Source of the DNA: Thermoplasmatales archaeon
GTDB taxonomy: Archaea; Thermoplasmatota; Thermoplasmata; Thermoplasmatales; GCA-001856825
DNA: 64,000 nucleotides
Reading direction: 5' to 3'
NCBI GenBank assembly: GCA_027345195.1
Contig: DAHWIJ010000015.1
Location: forward strand, 64,375-128,374
Positions 53,035 through 64,000 of the stretch are shown in pieces; position 1 is the stretch's first letter, and each line of letters begins with the position of its first letter. The notes beneath the pieces are model-generated. The model saw nothing but the letters and a program-made list of their open reading frames with translations. It did not search any database and was not told the DNA's origin. The position numbers were made by a program, and so were the translations under genes.

Positions 53035-53727
53035 ATGCCAGTTCATTCCTCATATATGAACCCAAAATACACAGCAATCATAACCGGTGGAACATCCGGT
53101 CTTGGATTTGAGACAGTGAAAGTATTAGATAGGAAAGGATGGAGAGTGGCGACCTGTGGTCGTAGGAACGCAATAATAGAGAGGATAAAGAAGGATTCAG
53201 ATAACAGAATATTGGCTGAGGTCTGCGATATTAGGATTGATTCTTCCATTTCACTATTCCTCGGAAAAGTTGAAGATGCGTTTAAGGGGATTGACGTATT
53301 GGTGTTGAATGCAGCCGATATTGGCCCAGTCCCGCTGCCCACAATTGAAAATCTTGAAACAAGGGACCTGAGAATGACCTTTGAGACGAACTTTTTTGGA
53401 AATTTCAATTTCCTGAAGCTTGCTCTCCCACTCATGAGAGATGGGGGGATCGTCGTTCACATTACTTCAGACGCAGCAAAGGAGCCCTATCCTGGTTGGG
53501 CAGCCTATTCCTCATCAAAAGCAGCATTTGATATCCTTATCAAAATTCTCAACGAAGAGCTAAAAGCAAGGAGAATAAAGGCTTTCTCATTTGATCCAGG
53601 GGATATGAATACCGCGATGCATCACCTGGCAATACCTGACGACAGGTCCCCACTAAAGGACCCGAAGGTATCTGCAGAGGAGCTATTTATGGAAATAAGG
53701 AAGAGAGTGGGTGAGCATGATGAATGA
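53035..53727 (+). CDS. Short-chain dehydrogenase/reductase (classical SDR)
   Basis: TGGTSGLG cofactor loop, LNAA, and the catalytic S...YSSSK. Confidence 0.9.
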   Translation: MPVHSSYMNPKYTAIITGGTSGLGFETVKVLDRKGWRVATCGRRNAIIERIKKDSDNRILAEVCDIRIDSSISLFLGKVEDAFKGIDVLVLNAADIGPVPLPTIENLETRDLRMTFETNFFGNFNFLKLALPLMRDGGIVVHITSDAAKEPYPGWAAYSSSKAAFDILIKILNEELKARRIKAFSFDPGDMNTAMHHLAIPDDRSPLKDPKVSAEELFMEIRKRVGEHDE

Positions 53728-54790
53728 TTATTTTAGTGCCTATCTGCCAAGGCAGCTGTACGGGTACAGGAGAAGCGACGCGAAGATGATGATCGTCAAC
53801 CAAAACGCTGTGGTTGATTCAACCCTCGCTAATCTTCCCGACTCTTTGGAAGAAGGGGACCTGTTAATATTTAACAATAGCAGATTAATCCCCTCGAGTC
53901 TGGACGTTTATTCGGATGAGCTACAACAGTATTTGAAAATCAATGTGGGCACGGACAGGCTCTCAGGTCTATTTCTTCTCGAGGTGAGACCTAGGGGGAT
54001 CGGCTACAGGCTGAGGGAAGGGAGTTCCCTGGAACTTCTAGATGGATCTAACAGCGTGGTCCTCTTCAGGAGGTATAAGCCTTTTGACAGATTCTGGTGG
54101 GGGAAATTAAAAGAGCCGGATGAGACAATCGATGAAATACTCCGGGAGGATGGTAAATATATCAGGTACGAGCACATTCCATTTGACCTTCCTCCTAGTA
54201 TATACGATGGAATTTTCTATAAGGTGCCTGGAAGCGTGGAACTGCCTTCTGCCTCATTTTCTTTCGATACTGATATTATCAAGAAGCTGGGGGATAAGGG
54301 AATCAAGATGGAGGAGATCACGCTGCATTGTAACCTGGGCTCTCTGGAACCAAATGAGTTTGAAAATGAGTCCAGATTGTTAGAGGAAAGATTCTCATTA
54401 CCCATTAAGACTTTAAAGTCTATATTTGAAACACGGGCAAGAGGAAACAAGGTGATTGCAGTTGGTACAACCGTAGTAAGGGCGCTAGAGACAGTCGTAG
54501 GCATAACAACTGGCACTTTTAGACTCGGCAAACTGGTTGAACAGTCAAATAATGATTCACACATCTCAGGGAGCACCGGCCTTTTCATAAACGGAAATTA
54601 TAGATTAAGGATGGTTGACGGAATAGTGACAGGGATGCATGAGGAGGAGGGCTCGCATATCCGGATGCTTGAAGCGTTCCAGAGTAAAGAAACCTTGAAC
54701 AGGATGTCAAAGTACGCAAACGAATGGGGGTATCAGTACCACGAATTCGGTGACCTTGCATTGATTTTCTCGCAACGCAGAGAGAAGTAG
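53711..54790 (+). CDS. QueA-like S-adenosylmethionine ribosyltransferase-isomerase homolog
   Basis: EGDLLIFNNSRLIPSSL, HCNLGSLEP and NKVIAVGTTVVRALE align closely with E. coli QueA (GDLLVFNNTRVIPARL; HVGAGTFQP; NRVIAVGTTSVRSLE, as recalled). The TNFHLPES block is changed to TGMHEEEG. It overlaps the SDR gene by 17 nt. Confidence 0.85.
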   Translation: MSMMNDYFSAYLPRQLYGYRRSDAKMMIVNQNAVVDSTLANLPDSLEEGDLLIFNNSRLIPSSLDVYSDELQQYLKINVGTDRLSGLFLLEVRPRGIGYRLREGSSLELLDGSNSVVLFRRYKPFDRFWWGKLKEPDETIDEILREDGKYIRYEHIPFDLPPSIYDGIFYKVPGSVELPSASFSFDTDIIKKLGDKGIKMEEITLHCNLGSLEPNEFENESRLLEERFSLPIKTLKSIFETRARGNKVIAVGTTVVRALETVVGITTGTFRLGKLVEQSNNDSHISGSTGLFINGNYRLRMVDGIVTGMHEEEGSHIRMLEAFQSKETLNRMSKYANEWGYQYHEFGDLALIFSQRREK

Positions 54791-54845: not shown

Positions 54846-55940
54846 TTAACGCTCATCCCTTTTCTCTGACTCTGCCGACCTCCGGATAGCTTCCAGTTTG
54901 GCCATAAGAACCTCCGGGGACACCCTCAGAATATACTCATTCTCGACGCCGGATGAGTACCCCTTCCCAATCTTCGTCTTTTTGACGAGTCCGGACAACT
55001 CGATCGTCTTCAGGAGCTTGTATACCCTTGATTCACTAATCCCGCCGCCAAGTCTCTTGAGGTCTGAAGACCGGAATGATTTCTCAGTCTCCAAAGATTC
55101 AAGAAGCTGCCTGAGGAGGTCTACCTCATCCATCTCGAGGCTTATTAGCGAACTCTCCTCAAGAGGGGGGGAGAAATCTCTGTATGCTCCAAGAACGGCT
55201 TCATCGTCCAATAATCTGTTGCTAGATTCTGCGTACAGAGCAGAATTTAGAAGGAGCTCTATTGCTGTTCTCGCGCTCCCCTGTTCTTCAACAAGCTCGG
55301 AAATTCTGCGTATGGCAGAGTCTGTATAAGTTCCTTCGTACAAACCAACTTCTGCCCTTGAGGAAGCTATGAGGTACAGCTCCTCGGAATTATATTCCCT
55401 GAGAGAAATCCTGTTGTACCTACCAAGTCCTGAGAGCGTACTTTTATCCAGGTACATTTCAGGTTCTTCCATTGACAGCAGAACAAGTTTAATCTGTGGT
55501 CCTCCAAGCTCCTGGCTTCTTGATAGGAGATATAGAATTTGTCCGTGACTTTTCTTAAGGGACTGTGACTCATCCAGAACGATCAGATTGTTTTTTTCGG
55601 GAAGCGTCCTGAAGAGTATTTCGGACAGAGGCTCCCCCCTTGCACTCCCTATTTCAGGCAATCTCAACCTTGGGTCGTTGAGAATCGTTGACACAATCGC
55701 CCTGTCTGTTTGGTTGATGTAACAGTTAACATATGCAACCCTGAATTCCTTCATCTCCTTCACCAGGAGTTTCCCAATGAGAGTTTTGCCTGTCCCGGGA
55801 TTACCTCTCACTACAAAGGTGGAGGAGATATCAACTGCCCTGATCATTTCCTTGAGGTGTTCGACCTCCTGCCTTCTTCCTATGATCGTTTCGGGTACGT
55901 AATCCTGTGACAGCACGACTGAATTTTTTATTATCTTCAT
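54846..55940 (-). CDS. Orc1/Cdc6 paralog (shorter and divergent)
   Basis: LSQDYVPETIIGRRQE, Walker A GNPGTGKT, Walker B VLDESQ and a C-terminal winged helix (SRVYKLLKTIELSGLV). 364 aa. Confidence 0.85.
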   Translation of the reverse strand: MKIIKNSVVLSQDYVPETIIGRRQEVEHLKEMIRAVDISSTFVVRGNPGTGKTLIGKLLVKEMKEFRVAYVNCYINQTDRAIVSTILNDPRLRLPEIGSARGEPLSEILFRTLPEKNNLIVLDESQSLKKSHGQILYLLSRSQELGGPQIKLVLLSMEEPEMYLDKSTLSGLGRYNRISLREYNSEELYLIASSRAEVGLYEGTYTDSAIRRISELVEEQGSARTAIELLLNSALYAESSNRLLDDEAVLGAYRDFSPPLEESSLISLEMDEVDLLRQLLESLETEKSFRSSDLKRLGGGISESRVYKLLKTIELSGLVKKTKIGKGYSSGVENEYILRVSPEVLMAKLEAIRRSAESEKRDER

Positions 55941-57481: not shown

Positions 57482-57704
57482 CTTACTTTCATGCTTGTCT
57501 TGTAAAAAAGGGTTTAGGTAGGTCGTCCGTTGATCTGAAAATCTGGTAATCCTACCAAAAGGACATTGATCTCGATCATCTACCGACCTATTCATTTCTG
57601 GAATGGTAAGGCAAAATTGAATTTCAGAAAAGGCACGGAACCGCTTCCTGATTTCTTCGACCCTCGCTACGCAATATTTTTATGACTCCTTGGATTATAA
57701 CAGT

Positions 57705-57890
57705 ATGGCGAAATACACATTCAAGTGTGCAGACATTGGGATGAACTGTGGCTTTGAAACAAAAGCATCCACCAAGGAAGAGCTGATGCCCCTAATAGCC
57801 AATCACGCCAAGACTGCTCACAATATGAATGAGATACCTCCGGATGTGATGCAAAAGGTCAATGCGGCCATAAAGAAAAAAATGTTCTGA
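57705..57890 (+). CDS. DUF1059 small protein
   Basis: MAKYTFKCADIGMNCGFE...HAKTAH pattern. Confidence 0.8.
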   Translation: MAKYTFKCADIGMNCGFETKASTKEELMPLIANHAKTAHNMNEIPPDVMQKVNAAIKKKMF

Positions 57891-58175
57891 ATCTAGGACC
57901 ACAAAGCTATTAAAACGATATTAGACCGGGCGTTGTCATACCTTCACCTACAGTAGGGGCTATGAACACGAAGTTTTAACCGCGCTCTCCAGGTTTTAAT
58001 GTTTTACCTCTCGCAAGCGTACGCCCCTTGCGATATTAACCTGCAAGTTTTAAAGTGCGAAATGTTCTTTGAGTGAAATATGTTGTCTCGATTTGGAATC
58101 ATTTCTATGCATTAACCTTCATTTTTAGTTCTGGTGCGAACAGAATTATTTTCAGAGGATATTGAATTTATTGCC

Positions 58176-58640
58176 ATGGAACCAAGAATAGATTATACCA
58201 GATATTCTCCCGAAATGCTAAGAGCATTGCGGTCTCTCGAGAAGGCAATTTCCAGGTCCGGACTGAATAGCCGCTTGCTTCATTTGGTCAAAATGAGGGC
58301 TTCGCAGTTAAATGGATGTGGATGGTGCCTGGACATGCATTCAAAGGATTCTATACTTGAAGCAGAAACAGTGCAACGTTTGGTGCTCCTTGATGCCTGG
58401 TGGGAATGCCCCCAGTATACTGACAAGGAAAAGGCGGCACTGGCGTGGACTGAGAGGGTTACCAATATATCAGAATGGAGGGACGATGATGTGATCTATG
58501 CGAATCTACGAAAACATTTTTCACAGGAGCAGATAGTCAACCTAACTTGGGCCATCGTTGCAATAAATTCGTGGAATAGGCTTAATGTTGCACTAAAGAC
58601 TGTTCCTGGGACTTATGAACCTCCACAGCGGAAATCCTAG
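58176..58640 (+). CDS. Carboxymuconolactone decarboxylase/AhpD-like protein
   Basis: LVKMRASQLNGCGWCLDMH motif. The start is chosen at MEPRIDY. Confidence 0.85.
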   Translation: MEPRIDYTRYSPEMLRALRSLEKAISRSGLNSRLLHLVKMRASQLNGCGWCLDMHSKDSILEAETVQRLVLLDAWWECPQYTDKEKAALAWTERVTNISEWRDDDVIYANLRKHFSQEQIVNLTWAIVAINSWNRLNVALKTVPGTYEPPQRKS

Positions 58641-58719
58641 AATGCTGTATTGCAATAGTCAACCATTTGTAGCTTCCGGGGCAATCAAATATTTATCTTC
58701 CAGCTTTCAATAGAAACGC

Positions 58720-59049
58720 GTGACTGAACCTAAAGTAGATCAATCCTCTTGGAAACAAGTTTCTAATGCGATAGACGGTATATATCAACAGCTTGCAGTC
58801 AGTGAAAACAATGGAACGGTCAAATTCCTAAAATTTGGTCCTAATAAGGCATACCCTAAACATCATCACCCAGACAGGGTTGAGTGGTTGTATGTCCTTT
58901 CGGGTGGAATGACCGTTGAGATCGATGGAGAGGTGCGACGTATGGAGGAAGGGGAGTACGCATACTTCCCCATCAACAGCCAGCATTCTCTTGAGGCCGG
59001 TGGCAAGGGAGCAACAGTCGTAGTTGCTGCATTCATACAGAAAACGTGA
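58720..59049 (+). CDS. Cupin-domain protein
   Basis: HHHPDRVEWLYVLSG and a second His motif near NSQHSL. 109 aa. Confidence 0.75.
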   Translation: MTEPKVDQSSWKQVSNAIDGIYQQLAVSENNGTVKFLKFGPNKAYPKHHHPDRVEWLYVLSGGMTVEIDGEVRRMEEGEYAYFPINSQHSLEAGGKGATVVVAAFIQKT

Positions 59050-59591
59050 AATTCGTCTGATTGGAGCGGTACATTAGAGACCTACATCATTCAATACTGT
59101 TTGGTCAGTAGGAGCAAATCCAGCAATCCTCCCGTAATTGCTCTCCATTACAAATCAAAGTTAGGGCAACTTGGACTTAACTTAAAACATCTGAACCCGC
59201 TTTTAGAAGCAATAATGGAATTCCCGATGACACTTCAATTAAATTCAGTCAGTATTTTGAGAGATACACCTGATATCGAATATTTTTAGCTCAGTCATAA
59301 CTTGTCGCCCTCCCAACCTGGTAATGACATTGTATCGAATCTGGTATCAGAAATGTTGAATTCAGATTTTTTGGATGTTTCGTGCTAGATGTCTTGCAGA
59401 AACACCGAGAGACCAAGAGGAAAATGGGCGCATCAAGAAGGAGATTGAGTGATACAAGAAAATACGTCAATCAACAGCCGTCATTGAGGACGGAAAGAAC
59501 TAATTTAAGATGGAGCAGTATCCAATTAGCGGCCTCCATCCCAATTGAATTGCACATTAGACTAACCGGTTACGCCCAGACAAATGCTCAG

Positions 59592-59666
59592 TGCTCCGGC
59601 CGGGATTTGAACCCGGGTCGTGGGATTGAGAGCCCCATATGCTTGGCCGGTCTACACCACCGGAGC
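59592..59666 (-). tRNA. tRNA-Glu (anticodon CUC)
   Basis: Acceptor GCTCCGG/CCGGAGC, anticodon arm TGGGG-CTCTCAA-TCCCA, T arm CCGGG-TTCAAAT-CCCGG and discriminator A. CCA is not encoded. Confidence 0.9.
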
Positions 59667-59774
59667 TAAGCCTAATCCGATAAAAATATAAAATATCTCT
59701 CAAAGCTTTTCGAGCCTAATTTGCGTTTGTGGTTGTGCCTCCGATGCTCCATCTGCTCATTCCCCGTTGCAATC

Positions 59775-62114
59775 CTAAATTATGAACTCTATCTTCCCAT
59801 TCCTGACAAAGTAGTGATTCTGTACAGGGCTGTCCTCGTATATCTCTATCCCGCCGCTGGACACAGTGACTCTTGCTCCATTGGAATTTACCCTGAACTC
59901 CTTTATCTTGTCCCCTTTTCCCTTGAGGAACTCCATTATGGCAGCTTCATTCTTCTCATCGTCCTGGATATCCACCAGGACCTCCTTAACCCTCCTTGCC
60001 TGGCCAGGGTCCTGCTTAACATCAGGTTGTATCAGCGGCTCAGTAGTCGAAATAATTGCCGGGCTGATGAATACCCTCTCCATTGCTTCTCTCCTCTCCT
60101 TTTCGCCCTTCTCCCTCCACAGTCCCAAGGCCCTCTGGAATATCGATACGAGATCATCCCCCTTTTTGGCGCTTTTCTCATCCTTCAGGTCCTTTTCCGA
60201 TAAGACTATATGAAGTTCGCTCTTCGCGCGGGTGAAGGCGACATACATGATCCTGGATTCCTCGTTAAGAGAGAAGTTGTGTCTTTCGCTCTTCCCTATA
60301 ATGCGCCTGCTCGGCGAGTTTATGAAGTCTTTATCCTTCTTGGCAACTATGCCTGAATATTCATCAGCGTAATATTTTTCCCTGTCCACCCCGGGTCTTA
60401 AGTCGTATATTATGACGGTGTTGAATTCAAGTCCTTTTGCCTGGTGAATTGTCATGATTTTTACTCTTGACGGGTCTTCCAGAAGATCGTCAATGGGCCC
60501 GCTCTCCTTGCTTTCTCTAGCATTCTGCAGCCATTCTGCAACCAGGTAGGGATCACCACCATAGCCGGTGACGTGGGATGATATGAGTTCTAGTATCCTG
60601 TACAGCCTTCCCACCTTCTCTCGGCCGTCCTTCGATCCGAGAAGCGCTGAGACGTAACCCTCTTTCAGTAAAATCCTGTTGAGCAACATATCCAGTCTTT
60701 CCTTCTTAAGAAATTCTCTGTATTTCCCTAGTTTACTGTCAAGGAGCTCTCCAAACCTTTCCTTTGATCTCACCAGGTCTGACGGAGTCAGCGCGAAAAA
60801 TGGGGAGAAAAGAAGGGAGACCTGGGCAACCTTGTCCCCCGGGTCCGCCAGGTATCTCACGAGGGAGAAAACATCAAGGCCTTCCTGAGATTTCAGCACC
60901 GACTCTCCGGAAATGAGAACGCTGTTCACGCCTTCCTTCCTCATTTGCCTGTTGAGATTGAAAAAATCGGTGGATGTCCTGCTAAGGATCGCTATCCCTC
61001 CGGGCGTTTCCCCTTCCCTTATCTTCTTCTTTACTATTTCCACAACAGCACGCACCTTGTCTTCTTCAATGTAACAGTAGACCCCGCCATCCTGGTCGGA
61101 ATAACCGTCCATGGGCTCATATTCCATGATGGATGGGAAGTAGCTGTTGAAGAACCGTATCAGATTTCTTCCGCTTCTCCTGTTTACTTTCAAAGTGCTG
61201 TGATTTTCAAGTCTTTCGGAAAACCTCCTCTGAGCACCCGGGTGGGCCCCCCGGAACGAATAGATACTCTGGTTGAGGTCACCGACAACAAAAAATGTTG
61301 AACCGTTGTCCAGAAGCTGCTCGAAGATCGCTATCTGTAATTCGTCGGTGTCCTGGAATTCATCAACCAGTATGAACCTGAACTTCCTTGCAATCTCATC
61401 CCCCCTGACTTCTAGTATCTTGAGGGTGTAGAGGAGCAGATCATCAAAATCCATGAGCCTGCCCCTCTTCTTGACCTCCTGATATTCATTTAGGAAGGAA
61501 AAGAGGAGGGATAGCAGGTCAGGCAGCACGGAAATCCGTGTTTTTGACAAGACCTCTTTGAGTATATCCGGATCAAAGGATTCCCCATTGTATTCCGTGT
61601 GGAACCCTTTTTTGGTGGAGATCATATAGTTAAGGTATCCCTTCTGCTCAACAAGTATTTCCGTGCATTCCTTAATGACCTGTTCTAGGTCTGTTTCATA
61701 GCTCTCTAGGATCCTGCTGAGAATGAGCCCGTTCTCAGTAACTTTCTTCTCATTCCTTATGCGTATTACGTAATTCCTGACGCTCTTCTCAAGTAGGTTG
61801 AACGATTCCAGATCATCCATTACCCTGAAATACCACGGTATCCCGACCTCACTTCCGTATTTCCTCACAATTTTTGAACAGAAATTGTGAATAGTTCCGA
61901 CGTTCGAGTTTGGTAGTTTCCTGATCAGGTCAATTTGTCCGTCCTTAGAAGCCCTCTGTTTGAGCCTTCGAAGAAGTTCTTCTGAGGCACGGTCTGTGAA
62001 TGTGATTGCTACCACGCTTTCCACCCCTTCCGTTTGCATCAGCTCGTAGCATTTGTTAATGAGCGCTTCCGTCTTTCCAGACCCAGGTACGGCAGCCACA
62101 AAATCTCCGTTCAA
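59775..62114 (-). CDS. UvrD/Rep/AddA-like superfamily 1 helicase without a nuclease domain
   Basis: SF1 motifs AAVPGSGKT, ITFTDRA, TIHNFC, LVDEFQDT, VGDLNQSIYSFRGA, TIHQAKGLEF and YVAFTRAKSEL. The TTG start lies 1 nt after the upstream stop. Confidence 0.9.
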   Translation of the reverse strand: MNGDFVAAVPGSGKTEALINKCYELMQTEGVESVVAITFTDRASEELLRRLKQRASKDGQIDLIRKLPNSNVGTIHNFCSKIVRKYGSEVGIPWYFRVMDDLESFNLLEKSVRNYVIRIRNEKKVTENGLILSRILESYETDLEQVIKECTEILVEQKGYLNYMISTKKGFHTEYNGESFDPDILKEVLSKTRISVLPDLLSLLFSFLNEYQEVKKRGRLMDFDDLLLYTLKILEVRGDEIARKFRFILVDEFQDTDELQIAIFEQLLDNGSTFFVVGDLNQSIYSFRGAHPGAQRRFSERLENHSTLKVNRRSGRNLIRFFNSYFPSIMEYEPMDGYSDQDGGVYCYIEEDKVRAVVEIVKKKIREGETPGGIAILSRTSTDFFNLNRQMRKEGVNSVLISGESVLKSQEGLDVFSLVRYLADPGDKVAQVSLLFSPFFALTPSDLVRSKERFGELLDSKLGKYREFLKKERLDMLLNRILLKEGYVSALLGSKDGREKVGRLYRILELISSHVTGYGGDPYLVAEWLQNARESKESGPIDDLLEDPSRVKIMTIHQAKGLEFNTVIIYDLRPGVDREKYYADEYSGIVAKKDKDFINSPSRRIIGKSERHNFSLNEESRIMYVAFTRAKSELHIVLSEKDLKDEKSAKKGDDLVSIFQRALGLWREKGEKERREAMERVFISPAIISTTEPLIQPDVKQDPGQARRVKEVLVDIQDDEKNEAAIMEFLKGKGDKIKEFRVNSNGARVTVSSGGIEIYEDSPVQNHYFVRNGKIEFII

Positions 62115-62115
62115 C

Positions 62116-64000
62116 TTACCACCTCCTTTCCTGCACCCTGCAGACGCTCAACAGTGGGCAGAAGAGCTCGTTCTCACACTTCCAAAGGTTTCCACCTTCC
62201 TTTACAACCGGGTCTACATCTCCATTGACGAAGTCCTGAAGCACTGGGTTTATTATATCGATGCACTTCCTCACCTGAGCTTCCTCGTTGGGAATGGAAT
62301 TGAAAAATCCAGCTGTACTGAATCCATCGTTAGTATCCTTGAAGGAAACATAAGCTGCTGCCTTCACCTTCTTCTTGAGTACCGCCTCCACTCCAAGCTT
62401 GTAAAAAAATAGCTGGACTTTATAGTGTTTCTCGTCGCAGAGATCATTCTTTGGATACCCGTACAGGGAACTCTTGTAGTCTATTATACAAAGACCCTCT
62501 CCCTGTTCATCCACCCTGTCCACGTATCCGCCTATGCTCATCCTTTCCCCTGAGAACTCATAGTATACCTGTTGTTCGTTGGTTGGAAAATGGAACTCCT
62601 TTTGAATAGTTCTTCTCCCGAGTTCGAGCGAGCGCTGGACATCCATCGAGAAGAACTTTACCAGTTTCCCGGTAGCGAGATACTTCTCCCTGTAGAACTT
62701 CAAAGCTTCTGTCCTAGATTCATACTTTTCCCTGGCTATCTCCCCCTTTATGTAGGAATCTGCCAGTTTTCTGAAACTTGCAGGTGGAAGGTCCGTGGAG
62801 TAGTACATCTCCAATATCCTGTGCGTCAGACTACCTGTAGTCCTTGGATCCAGGAATTCCCTCGGAGGGTCTATTTCGTCGACCCCCAGCAGACCATTCA
62901 CAAAACCTTTGAAATGGCACCCCGCGTAGTTTTCTATAAACGTCGGGTATATCGGCTTTTCCATCCTCTCCCTGATAATCGCCTTGTCGAGGAAATAATC
63001 TATTGAAATTTTTGAATCCCTGCCAAGTTCCCATTCCAGGAGAGGGTTTTGGGGTATGAAGATGGAATCCCTGGTCACTAATTCCCCCACCCCACTAATT
63101 TCATCGTAGAATGCAATAGGCTCCGTGTGGCCTAATTTTTCGTCCTGGAATGAGTAGGACAGCACCACCCTTTCAGATTGGGAAAGGAGTGTTTTGTATG
63201 CAAGGTCCATGAGATTCTCGAACCCGTCTTCAAGCTCTATCTTGGCGAGAAAGTCTCTCGCTTCCTGGGGGAATGACCTAAGGGAGGAAGCCGCGTCTAG
63301 GCCAACGATGAATAGATTGTCTAATGGGAGCCCAAGGAGGTCCAACGGCTTCCCAACAATCACTTCGAGGTCCCCCGATATATTCACCCTTGGAAGATAT
63401 TTCAAAGATTCCATGTCATTGATCAAACCCGATGCGTCGTTGGAATACCCCTCAAATGCCGAGAGGAGAATTCTTAGAATTTTTCCAGGATGATTCCCTT
63501 CACCAAGGTACTTGTCCAGGAATGCCATAAGGGATTTAATCCCCCCCTGATTTCCTATATCCCTTGACACTCCCTCCAGGTCCCTGAGAATGTCATCTCC
63601 GATCTTCAGTTCACGGAAAAGCGTCTCCCAGTCCCTCAGCCCCCTTGTGATGTTCTTTTCGTAGCAATGCTGCTTTATACGGTATAGCTTGGAGGGATCG
63701 ATGTTGGAATATGGATTCTCAAGTATTGAAATAACATGCTCAAAGGAGAAGTCTTCTTCGATACACCTTATAGCAGAGATGGCAAAGTTGTAAGGGGCAT
63801 CGTTCAAATAAATCTCCGAAACAGGTGAAGCTACGGAAGGGCGGACGCCGAACATTTCAAGTTCCTTAGCTATCCCGACTGCAAAGTAGTCATCAGGGAC
63901 AACTATCCCTTTTGTACCATCTGCTTCAAGGACTTCCCTTACGGTCCACCTAATTTCTGCCAGGTAATCTGAAAATCTTCTCTTTCTCACCTTTGCACTA
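62116..64000 (-). CDS. AddB-like PD-(D/E)XK (RecB-family) nuclease with a C-terminal Cys cluster, 5' end beyond the window
   Basis: GGYVDRVD, IIDYKS and QLFFY nuclease motifs. One upstream Cys (AGCHFKG) plus the C-terminal CENELFCPLLSVC. The frame remains open to position 64000. Confidence 0.75.
   Translation of the reverse strand, partial: SAKVRKRRFSDYLAEIRWTVREVLEADGTKGIVVPDDYFAVGIAKELEMFGVRPSVASPVSEIYLNDAPYNFAISAIRCIEEDFSFEHVISILENPYSNIDPSKLYRIKQHCYEKNITRGLRDWETLFRELKIGDDILRDLEGVSRDIGNQGGIKSLMAFLDKYLGEGNHPGKILRILLSAFEGYSNDASGLINDMESLKYLPRVNISGDLEVIVGKPLDLLGLPLDNLFIVGLDAASSLRSFPQEARDFLAKIELEDGFENLMDLAYKTLLSQSERVVLSYSFQDEKLGHTEPIAFYDEISGVGELVTRDSIFIPQNPLLEWELGRDSKISIDYFLDKAIIRERMEKPIYPTFIENYAGCHFKGFVNGLLGVDEIDPPREFLDPRTTGSLTHRILEMYYSTDLPPASFRKLADSYIKGEIAREKYESRTEALKFYREKYLATGKLVKFFSMDVQRSLELGRRTIQKEFHFPTNEQQVYYEFSGERMSIGGYVDRVDEQGEGLCIIDYKSSLYGYPKNDLCDEKHYKVQLFFYKLGVEAVLKKKVKAAAYVSFKDTNDGFSTAGFFNSIPNEEAQVRKCIDIINPVLQDFVNGDVDPVVKEGGNLWKCENELFCPLLSVCRVQERRW

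Follow-up and report, generated by a model that had tools for sequence, protein, structure and literature searches.

The DNA analysed here (the window) is a stretch of 64,000 nucleotides (nt) of contig DAHWIJ010000015.1 from a Thermoplasmatales archaeon. Its right end carries two adjacent minus-strand genes, one encoding an AddB-like protein with a RecB-family nuclease domain, the other a UvrD/AddA-type helicase of superfamily 1A (SF1A); a tRNA-Glu gene lies downstream of both. A preliminary description of this DNA had taken the host to be an archaeon. This holds: the window encodes MCM, PolD DP2, FtsZ, MetRS, thermopsin and Orc1/Cdc6 and belongs to a core archaeal chromosome. The features of the locus are as follows.

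62116–64000, minus strand: 3' part of the nuclease gene (1,885 nt; AddB-like, residues 164–790 plus stop)
62112–62130, minus strand: gene junction, GAA AGG AGG TGG TAA G TTG
59775–62114, minus strand: helicase gene (779 amino acids (aa); UvrD/AddA-type SF1A, without a nuclease domain)
59591–59666, minus strand: tRNA-Glu(CTC), found by ARAGORN, on the same strand as the pair

The two genes lie one nucleotide apart, and the coordinates and TTG start given for them earlier are all found in the sequence. The nuclease gene ends with TAA (62118-62116), a single spacer base (62115) follows, and the helicase opens with TTG (62114-62112), which is the earliest possible start downstream of an in-frame stop. 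In the window, 108 nt separate the helicase stop from tRNA-Glu(CTC).

The nuclease reading frame is open to the window edge (627 codons). An exact look-up of the helicase protein retrieved an 8.8-kb Logan contig (L001) that runs 4.4 kb past position 64000. Where the two overlap, its reverse complement was identical to the window, as checked on window positions 62001-64000 and 59701-60000. The full nuclease gene encodes 790 aa (L001:3919-6291, window-equivalent 62116-64488). It had been suggested that the rest of a larger system might lie beyond 64000; what lies there is the first 163 codons of the nuclease gene and then a divergent open reading frame (ORF) of 97 aa. We conclude that no further operon subunit follows, because the only neighbours on that side are the 97-aa ORF, on the opposite strand, and genes for a DUF357 protein, a HerA-family ATPase, an aminotransferase and an amino-acid-kinase-family protein.

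The AddB-like nuclease protein

The nuclease domain and its motifs are located as follows.

62137–62943, minus strand: RecB-family PD-(D/E)XK domain (Pfam PF12705), residues about 516–784
62917–62919, minus strand: codon of Cys524 (in AGCHFKG), proposed first Fe-S ligand
62401–62520, minus strand: catalytic motifs GGYVDRVD (D657), IIDYKS (D670, K672) and QLFFY (Q692, Y696)
62140–62178, minus strand: Cys771-X5-Cys777-X5-Cys783, proposed second to fourth Fe-S ligands

The match to Pfam PDDEXK_1 (PF12705) was strong (E = 6e-23) and covered profile positions 5-247 of 247. The motif strings quoted in the preliminary description (AGCHFKG, GGYVDRVD, IIDYKS, QLFFY and CX5CX5C) are present in the translation, the last of them as CENELFCPLLSVC. 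In an alignment of 74 AddB-like proteins, the residues D657, D670, K672, Q692, Y696, G552, H556 and G654 were invariant. The four cysteines C524, C771, C777 and C783 were invariant in the 16-member family alignment and conserved to at least 90% in the 74 AddB-like proteins. Their arrangement around the nuclease, one before and three after, is the layout of 4Fe-4S binding in AddB; most relatives have CX2-3CX5C where the family has CX5CX5C.

Curated NCBIfam models gave weak matches to the nuclease domain alone (TIGR03623, the AddA C-terminal nuclease, addB_alphas and cas4), all far under their cut-offs; the Cas4 model TIGR00372 scored 19 bits against a cut-off of 65. A family-profile search of the Protein Data Bank (PDB) sequences returned nothing at E ≤ 1. 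The link to AddB came through fold comparison alone. A first AlphaFold2 run with 16 close homologues gave a mean predicted local distance difference test score (pLDDT) of 55 with a poor nuclease domain, and was replaced by a run with the 74-sequence alignment. The resulting model had a mean pLDDT of 86.3 and a predicted template modelling score of 0.77. Foldseek comparison of this model with the PDB gave the following matches (TM, template modelling score).

AddB chains (top five): E 2.6e-21 to 1.3e-19, TM (query-normalised) 0.50-0.53
4cei_B (AddB), the best of these: E = 2.6e-21, TM 0.53 (query-normalised)
AddA: E 1e-14, TM about 0.27
AdnA: E 1e-11, TM 0.34
RecC: E 5e-11, TM 0.40-0.42
UvrD: E 8e-11, TM about 0.30

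The AddB alignments extended over about 1100-1140 columns, which is nearly the whole AddB chain. No SF1 helicase motifs were found in the sequence of the nuclease protein. At its N-terminus, HIFYSSGAARAFS can be aligned with IVLPSxRAxxFL, a strand of AddB-like proteins. A Walker A box (G..G.GK[ST]) is absent here and from 73 of the 74 aligned AddB-like sequences, and thus does not define the wider AddB-like family. The AddB fold, the strand alignment, the nuclease motifs and the cysteines together identify the 790-aa protein as an AddB-type subunit of reduced length that lacks a Walker A box and consists of a dead SF1-helicase scaffold, with the four-subdomain fold of UvrD-like helicases, joined to a RecB nuclease of the presumed Fe-S type. 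The earlier reading of this product as AddB-like is therefore borne out by fold, motifs and cysteine layout alike.

The helicase and the gene junction

The helicase begins with MNGDFVAAVPGSGKT, and two segments of its gene are of particular concern here.

62070–62093, minus strand: Walker A box AVPGSGKT, residues 8–15, preceded by 7 residues
59778–59972, minus strand: conserved C-terminal module of about 65 aa, without a Pfam match, not a nuclease

Pfam UvrD-helicase (PF00580) matched with E = 5.5e-50 and UvrD_C (PF13361), ending near residue 640, with E = 9e-26. The UvrD-helicase profile (271 positions) is matched only from position 17 onwards, which shows that the Q-motif segment is missing: the protein begins 13 residues ahead of the Walker A lysine, and the Q motif is expected about 21 residues ahead of it. 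A home-made N-terminal profile of AddA/UvrD-like relatives likewise matched only from position 21 of 86. Among 21 family members (36-71% identity), the residues of motifs I to VI were invariant, and the proteins started 6-8 residues before AVPGSGKT, apart from two database entries called longer and one later start. PF12705 gave no match to the helicase even at E ≤ 1, and the last 140 residues contain no nuclease motifs; invariant positions of the C-terminal module (alignment A5) are N722, I726, R741, T750, G755, E760 and G773. The claim that the downstream product is an SF1A motor of the UvrD/AddA type, with neither Q-motif segment nor nuclease domain, thus holds across the family. The best NCBIfam models were recB, pcrA and addA_Gpos, all under their cut-offs, and the closest solved structures by sequence were UvrD, AddA and PcrA, each near E = 1e-25. 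One helicase gene in the family (L011:12360-14721; JAMCUN010000023) carries a short duplication, in which LKISIIPEL is repeated and the frame is shifted; either the assembly is at fault or the gene is a pseudogene in that genome.

At the junction, a Shine-Dalgarno-like sequence, GGAGGTG, lies within the last nuclease codons, 5 nt before the helicase start. Related junctions have the form CAG GAR AGR AGR TGG, followed by a stop codon, a single spacer base and, in every locus except L003, a TTG, GTG or ATG start; in most loci GGAGGTG derives from the RRW codons. The one-base layout was seen in L001-L016 and is implied by gene coordinates in L021. In the divergent locus L017, ATG follows the stop directly (0 nt, in frame). 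Conservation of this junction points to translational coupling and a fixed stoichiometry of the two products. In one relative (L003:9563), ATC occupies the conserved start position and no canonical in-frame start is nearby; either ATC serves as a rare start codon or the sequence contains an error.

The nuclease C-terminus (window 62119-62133) reads QERRW in 16 close members and in P0139, and QELRW in the most divergent member. Q and W of this tail are kept even where the ribosome-binding site is weak (L017). A split Q motif supplied by the QERRW tail, either in trans or as the remnant of a fusion, was rejected at the sequence level: joining the tail to the helicase in chimeras left the match to a profile of 78 AddA/UvrD-like N-termini no longer than before, and the chimeras scored no better than shuffled tails. 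The embedded GGAGGTG ribosome-binding site accounts better for the invariance of the RRW codons. A fusion product made from the two ORFs by read-through or frameshifting is unlikely as well, as the spacer is mostly 1 nt, it is 0 nt in L017, and no single recoding event is conserved.

Conservation and interpretation of the pair

A word-indexed search with the nuclease returned 17 relatives, 16 of full length at 59-67% identity and one fragment of 470 aa; every source-named protein among the 17 comes from a Thermoplasmata metagenome-assembled genome (MAG). Only three full-length clusters (P0002, P0139 and P0140) emerged when 1.84 billion representatives were searched exhaustively with HMMER. Further matches had E-values of 1e-14 or weaker and covered mainly the nuclease domain; the ten weaker matches that were checked all lay in proteins matching AddB models (addB_Gpos, addB_alphas and TIGR03623). 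Widening the alignment for a third word-indexed protein search brought no additions. The source labels are generic ('PD-(D/E)XK nuclease family protein', 'UvrD-helicase domain-containing protein', 'DNA helicase-2/PcrA'), and one helicase fragment is labelled exonuclease V beta subunit. No description of the pair turned up in literature searches on archaeal AddAB, in Thermoplasma or elsewhere.

The two genes were adjacent and in the same order in 15 GTDB-representative contigs and in L017 and L021, and were never apart in contigs long enough to hold both. The pair is accordingly found together in L001-L017 and L021, which agrees with the expectation that it should co-occur in related genomes. 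The clade that carries it is narrow and uncultured and consists of acidophilic, I-plasma-like Thermoplasmata; ATMD01, JAJYUZ01, JAKAXD01 and DAHWMK01 are long assemblies with the pair. L018, L019 and L020, which are distant relatives, share the nuclease-then-helicase order. Outside the clade, helicase identity falls to about 31% or less. Of the 81 next-best helicase matches listed, 71 carry PF12705, and many are source-named AddA or RecB. The two closest out-of-clade helicase relatives that were looked up directly follow PD-(D/E)XK nuclease genes, one of them with ADDB_N. The nearest out-of-clade relatives match AddB and AddA models weakly, and the few with a named source are bacterial. With two long ORFs, strong domain matches and a pair conserved in all related contigs that are long enough, chance is not an issue.

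Several AddA-like relatives of 886-1113 aa (P0058, P0092, P0131 and P0137; L018 and L019) have no detectable or only a weak PD-(D/E)XK domain. At least one of these weak-nuclease relatives comes from a named bacterial MAG, and those in L018 and L019 follow PD-(D/E)XK nuclease genes. Single-nuclease AddAB variants may thus also occur in bacteria.

The order of genes around the pair is kept among relatives: aminotransferase, HerA-like, DUF357, 97-aa ORF, nuclease, helicase, tRNA-Glu, a variable stretch, dCMP deaminase, aldo-keto reductase and orc1/cdc6. In I-plasma, the 10 kb on either side of the pair hold housekeeping genes alone. No methylases, toxins, transposases or integrases were seen around the pair in the window, in L001 or in I-plasma. 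The search for mre11, rad50 and nurA covered the window and loci of roughly 20 kb, and none was found within 10 kb of the pair in I-plasma. The tRNA-Glu gene lies about 120-135 nt 3' of the helicase in 11 related loci. The guanine + cytosine (GC) content of the pair, its GC content at third codon positions (GC3) and its codon usage are indistinguishable from those of MCM, PolD and MetRS. No relatives of the family were found on IMG/VR viral contigs.

These results lead us to favour, with fair though not high confidence, the reading that the pair encodes two subunits of a divergent helicase-nuclease complex of the AddAB type, with one motor and one nuclease. The system is most likely inherited vertically and translationally coupled. 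It should not be filed as AddAB proper: the canonical AddA features (nuclease domain and Q motif) are missing and every equivalog cut-off failed. So far as literature searches show, the combination of one motor, a sole nuclease on the AddB-like subunit and a motor without Q motif is uncharacterised. The cellular role is most likely the processing of double-strand breaks or broken forks; the pair might also degrade linear foreign DNA as a side role, by analogy with RecBCD and AddAB.

A mechanism can be proposed on the model of Bacillus subtilis AddAB. There, AddA moves 3'-to-5' along the 3'-ended strand by its SF1A motor and cuts this strand with its own nuclease until the dead-helicase domain of AddB binds Chi; the 5'-ended strand is cut by the AddB nuclease, whose 4Fe-4S cluster has a stabilising role and contributes to DNA-end binding (PMC3321194). 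In the archaeal pair, the motor would likewise pull the 3'-ended strand (3'-to-5') and unwind the DNA from a duplex end, and the 5'-ended strand would be fed to the AddB-like nuclease and cut there. Because motor, scaffold and AddB-like nuclease are kept and the AddA nuclease is gone, cutting from the end would be confined to the 5' strand. Lacking a second nuclease acting on the 3' strand, the complex would produce a constitutive 3' single-stranded tail for the loading of RadA, and no Chi-like switch would be needed to stop 3'-strand cutting. A motor without Q motif would perhaps be less selective for adenine nucleotides.

A number of points weigh against this interpretation. Scores on the AddB equivalog models (TIGR02773, TIGR02786 and TIGR02774) did not reach the cut-offs (addB_alphas, 20-21 bits versus 486.5; addB_Gpos, 10 bits versus 903.7). 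The same is true of the helicase (recB, 201 bits versus 696; addA_Gpos, 173 versus 708; addA_alphas, 125 versus 861), whose preference for AddA/RecB over PcrA/UvrD models is modest and which is UvrD-sized. The first cysteine spacing is CX5C, as compared with CX2C in characterised AddB and Cas4, and Fe-S binding is predicted from cysteine conservation. Absence of the Q motif could mean an altered or weak ATPase activity. Finally, the heterodimer and the translational coupling of its subunits are what we infer from the genes, and both the strand polarity and the idea that Chi is dispensable are drawn by analogy.

Comparison with known systems shows what the pair shares with each. AddAB of the B. 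subtilis type (PDB 3U4Q, 4CEH and 4CEI) has the same addB-then-addA gene order, a single active SF1A motor, and an inactivated SF1-helicase scaffold with a C-terminal RecB-family nuclease and 1 + 3 cysteines, and AddB is the best structural match of the 790-aa protein over its full length. However, the AddAB motor carries a nuclease of its own whereas that of the pair has none, giving two nucleases versus one, and the pair's motor is devoid of the Q-motif segment. AddB is also longer (about 1160 aa versus 790 aa) and has CX2CX5C in place of CX5CX5C, the Walker A box of Gram-positive-type AddB is absent here, the host of the pair is archaeal, and the scores are far under the curated AddA and AddB cut-offs. 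To our knowledge, no Chi system is known in archaea. The best curated models for the nuclease, TIGR02786 (addB_alphas; E about 1e-4) and TIGR03623 ('probable DNA repair protein'; E about 1e-8), describe proteins that also lack the Walker A box and whose N-terminal strand aligns, but these matches are confined to the nuclease domain (20-34 bits versus cut-offs of 300-487). In L018, the one locus where the partner gene of such an AddB relative was inspected, this gene codes for a longer protein of the AddA type that gives at least a weak PD-(D/E)XK match.

RecBCD resembles the pair in combining a motor with a dead-helicase scaffold (RecC) and in having a single nuclease in the holoenzyme, but its nuclease resides on the motor (RecB) and the nuclease-like domain of RecC is inactive, which is the reverse of the situation here; no RecD-like second motor adjoins the pair. 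Eukaryotic Dna2 and the bacterial Dna2-like Bad couple an SF1 helicase to an Fe-S RecB-family nuclease that degrades the 5' strand, as proposed here, and by analogy the expected product would be the same, 3' tails without Chi regulation. These enzymes differ in being single polypeptides with an SF1B (5'-to-3') motor, an N-terminal Fe-S nuclease and no dead-helicase scaffold. HerA-NurA with Mre11-Rad50 has the same presumed task, 5'-strand resection in archaea, but the HerA and NurA proteins, a hexameric FtsK-type translocase and an RNase-H-like nuclease, are unrelated to those of the pair. UvrD-Cas4-like fusions of archaea and bacteria, and an unfused UvrD + Cas4-like operon of Clostridiales, likewise join a UvrD-family helicase to a pfam12705 nuclease (Hudaiberdiev et al. 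2017, PMC5704561). Their nuclease part is a small Cas4-like domain that no AddB scaffold accompanies, and the setting of the fusions is one of restriction-modification or defence (PMC5704561), whereas the pair has a full AddB-like protein and a housekeeping setting.

This last resemblance bears on the rival explanation that fares best, an anti-virus defence module that would load on the free ends of invading linear DNA and destroy it, in the manner of RecBCD on its antiviral side or of the UvrD-Cas4-like fusions; we regard such a module as unlikely. The helicase matches the GajB models of PADLOC (best E = 3e-52), the nuclease matches Cas4 models weakly, and UvrD + Cas4-like fusions are reported from defence neighbourhoods of bacteria and mesophilic archaea (PMC5704561). 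The GajB matches, however, reflect generic UvrD-family similarity, and no GajA-like or other defence partner is present: the partner here is AddB-like or Cas4-like rather than the OLD-family ATPase-nuclease GajA, and the other PADLOC defence models missed the neighbours except for generic HerA matches. Stand-alone Cas4, a small protein of about 180-220 aa, is a poor description of the nuclease, as the fold match is to full-length AddB, the protein has 790 aa with an AddB-type scaffold, and there are no cas genes nearby. The pair is less conserved among relatives (64-71% identity) than its HerA-like (88-91%) and aldo-keto reductase (91-94%) neighbours, as might suit a defence function, but its identity resembles that of Orc1/Cdc6 (69-74%). 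It also sits in a housekeeping neighbourhood, at the same locus in every related contig and on no IMG/VR viral contig.

The preliminary description had left the choice between a horizontally acquired single-nuclease AddAB variant and a defence module. Stable housekeeping synteny, the lack of defence or mobile genes and of viral contigs, and native codon usage favour the single-nuclease AddAB variant; its horizontal acquisition is no more than suggested by best hits. A bacterial origin is plausible from sequence comparison and, if real, ancient. Any transfer predates the divergence of the clade and left no compositional trace.

A second alternative, which we hold to be improbable, is that the products form no complex, the helicase being a UvrD-like accessory of repair or replication and the nuclease an independent, co-transcribed end-processing enzyme. 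The helicase is indeed UvrD-sized, scores nearly equally on PcrA and AddA models and comes just as close by sequence to UvrD as to AddA structures (E = 1e-25 for both). Against this, the tight gene spacing (0-1 nt) is kept down to 26% protein identity and the genes are never apart where contigs are long enough; conserved spacing together with the embedded ribosome-binding site argues for stoichiometric co-production. In addition, a dead-helicase scaffold of about 500 residues has been retained, which in AddB and RecC is sensible only as the partner of a motor subunit (PMC3321194).

A recent bacterial insertion (genomic island) at tRNA-Glu is highly improbable: the tRNA gene does lie 108 nt downstream and the source-named closest out-of-clade relatives are bacterial, with others matching AddA and AddB models, but pair and tRNA are kept together in all close relatives with the variable stretch on the other side of the tRNA, GC, GC3 and codon usage are native, the helicase is only about 27-31% identical to bacterial relatives, nuclease similarity is confined to the nuclease domain, and no integrase or repeats were seen. 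The tRNA gene, to which the preliminary description had drawn attention, is thus a conserved neighbour and not an integration scar of the pair. A viral or mobile-element origin was rejected, no relatives having been found in IMG/VR.

If the AddAB-type reading is correct, the pair extends a known series, in which bacterial end-resection machines are customarily grouped by how many motors and nucleases they have. RecBCD has two motors and one nuclease, AddAB one motor and two nucleases, and AdnAB two of each; a form with one motor and one nuclease, the latter on the AddB-like subunit, would be the minimal member. It would provide a test of whether the second nuclease, and hence control by Chi, is dispensable when the 5' strand alone is removed. 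Archaea are thought to depend on Mre11-Rad50 with HerA-NurA, and the pair would be an AddAB-type machine maintained vertically in this domain. A UvrD-family motor working without a Q motif would, if real, interest helicase enzymologists. The significance is limited by the narrow, uncultured clade, by function being deduced rather than observed, and by the reduced forms that may also exist in bacteria.

A bolder version of the AddAB-type reading holds that the pair is the main, Chi-independent end-resection machine of these archaea, replacing the NurA nuclease of the Mre11-Rad50/HerA-NurA pathway and perhaps working with the upstream HerA-family ATPase, and that its motor without Q motif has relaxed nucleotide specificity; this we find doubtful. 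If true, an archaeon would have domesticated a resection architecture of bacterial type and pared it down to the logic of eukaryotic Dna2-Sgs1, a helicase plus a 5'-strand Fe-S nuclease.

Flanking genes

Features upstream of the pair, beyond position 64000, are these.

L001:1699-3416 (window-equivalent about 64991-66708): HerA-family ATPase of 478 aa (HAS-barrel, DUF87, HerA_C), with the DUF357 gene
L001:3413-3706, minus strand of L001 (window-equivalent about 64701-64994): 97-aa ORF, without a Pfam, NCBIfam or PADLOC match

The HerA-family gene overlaps the following DUF357 gene by a few bases and is located about 0.8 kb, or two genes, away from the pair on its upstream side. Its product is 88-91% identical in close relatives and 84% identical in L015, and the synteny holds in the divergent L017. 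No NurA gene adjoins it, and the NCBIfam model for double-strand-break-repair HerA gave it 157 bits, where the cut-off is 970. This ATPase may be functionally linked to the helicase-nuclease pair.

The 97-aa ORF is divergent from the nuclease gene, from which it is separated by an intergenic region of 212 bp, and is 77-89% identical in relatives. An ORF of similar size (95 aa) occupies its position in L017. Its product could be a regulator or an unrelated small protein.

On the other side of the pair, the stretch from tRNA-Glu to dCMP deaminase (window 57596-59590) differs in length between related genomes, with a range of 0.6-7.1 kb. Cupin, carboxymuconolactone-decarboxylase-family and DUF1059 genes occupy it in the window, and this region 3' of tRNA-Glu looks like a hotspot for cargo or integration. 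The Orc1/Cdc6 gene (window 54846-55940, minus strand) is located about 4 kb from the pair, and a replication origin is probably near it. Adjoining orc1/cdc6, a plus-strand gene (window 53711-54790) matches QueA of bacterial-type queuosine biosynthesis (PF02547, E = 5e-54). An archaeon is expected to use archaeosine, and the QueA family is therefore unusual in this host.

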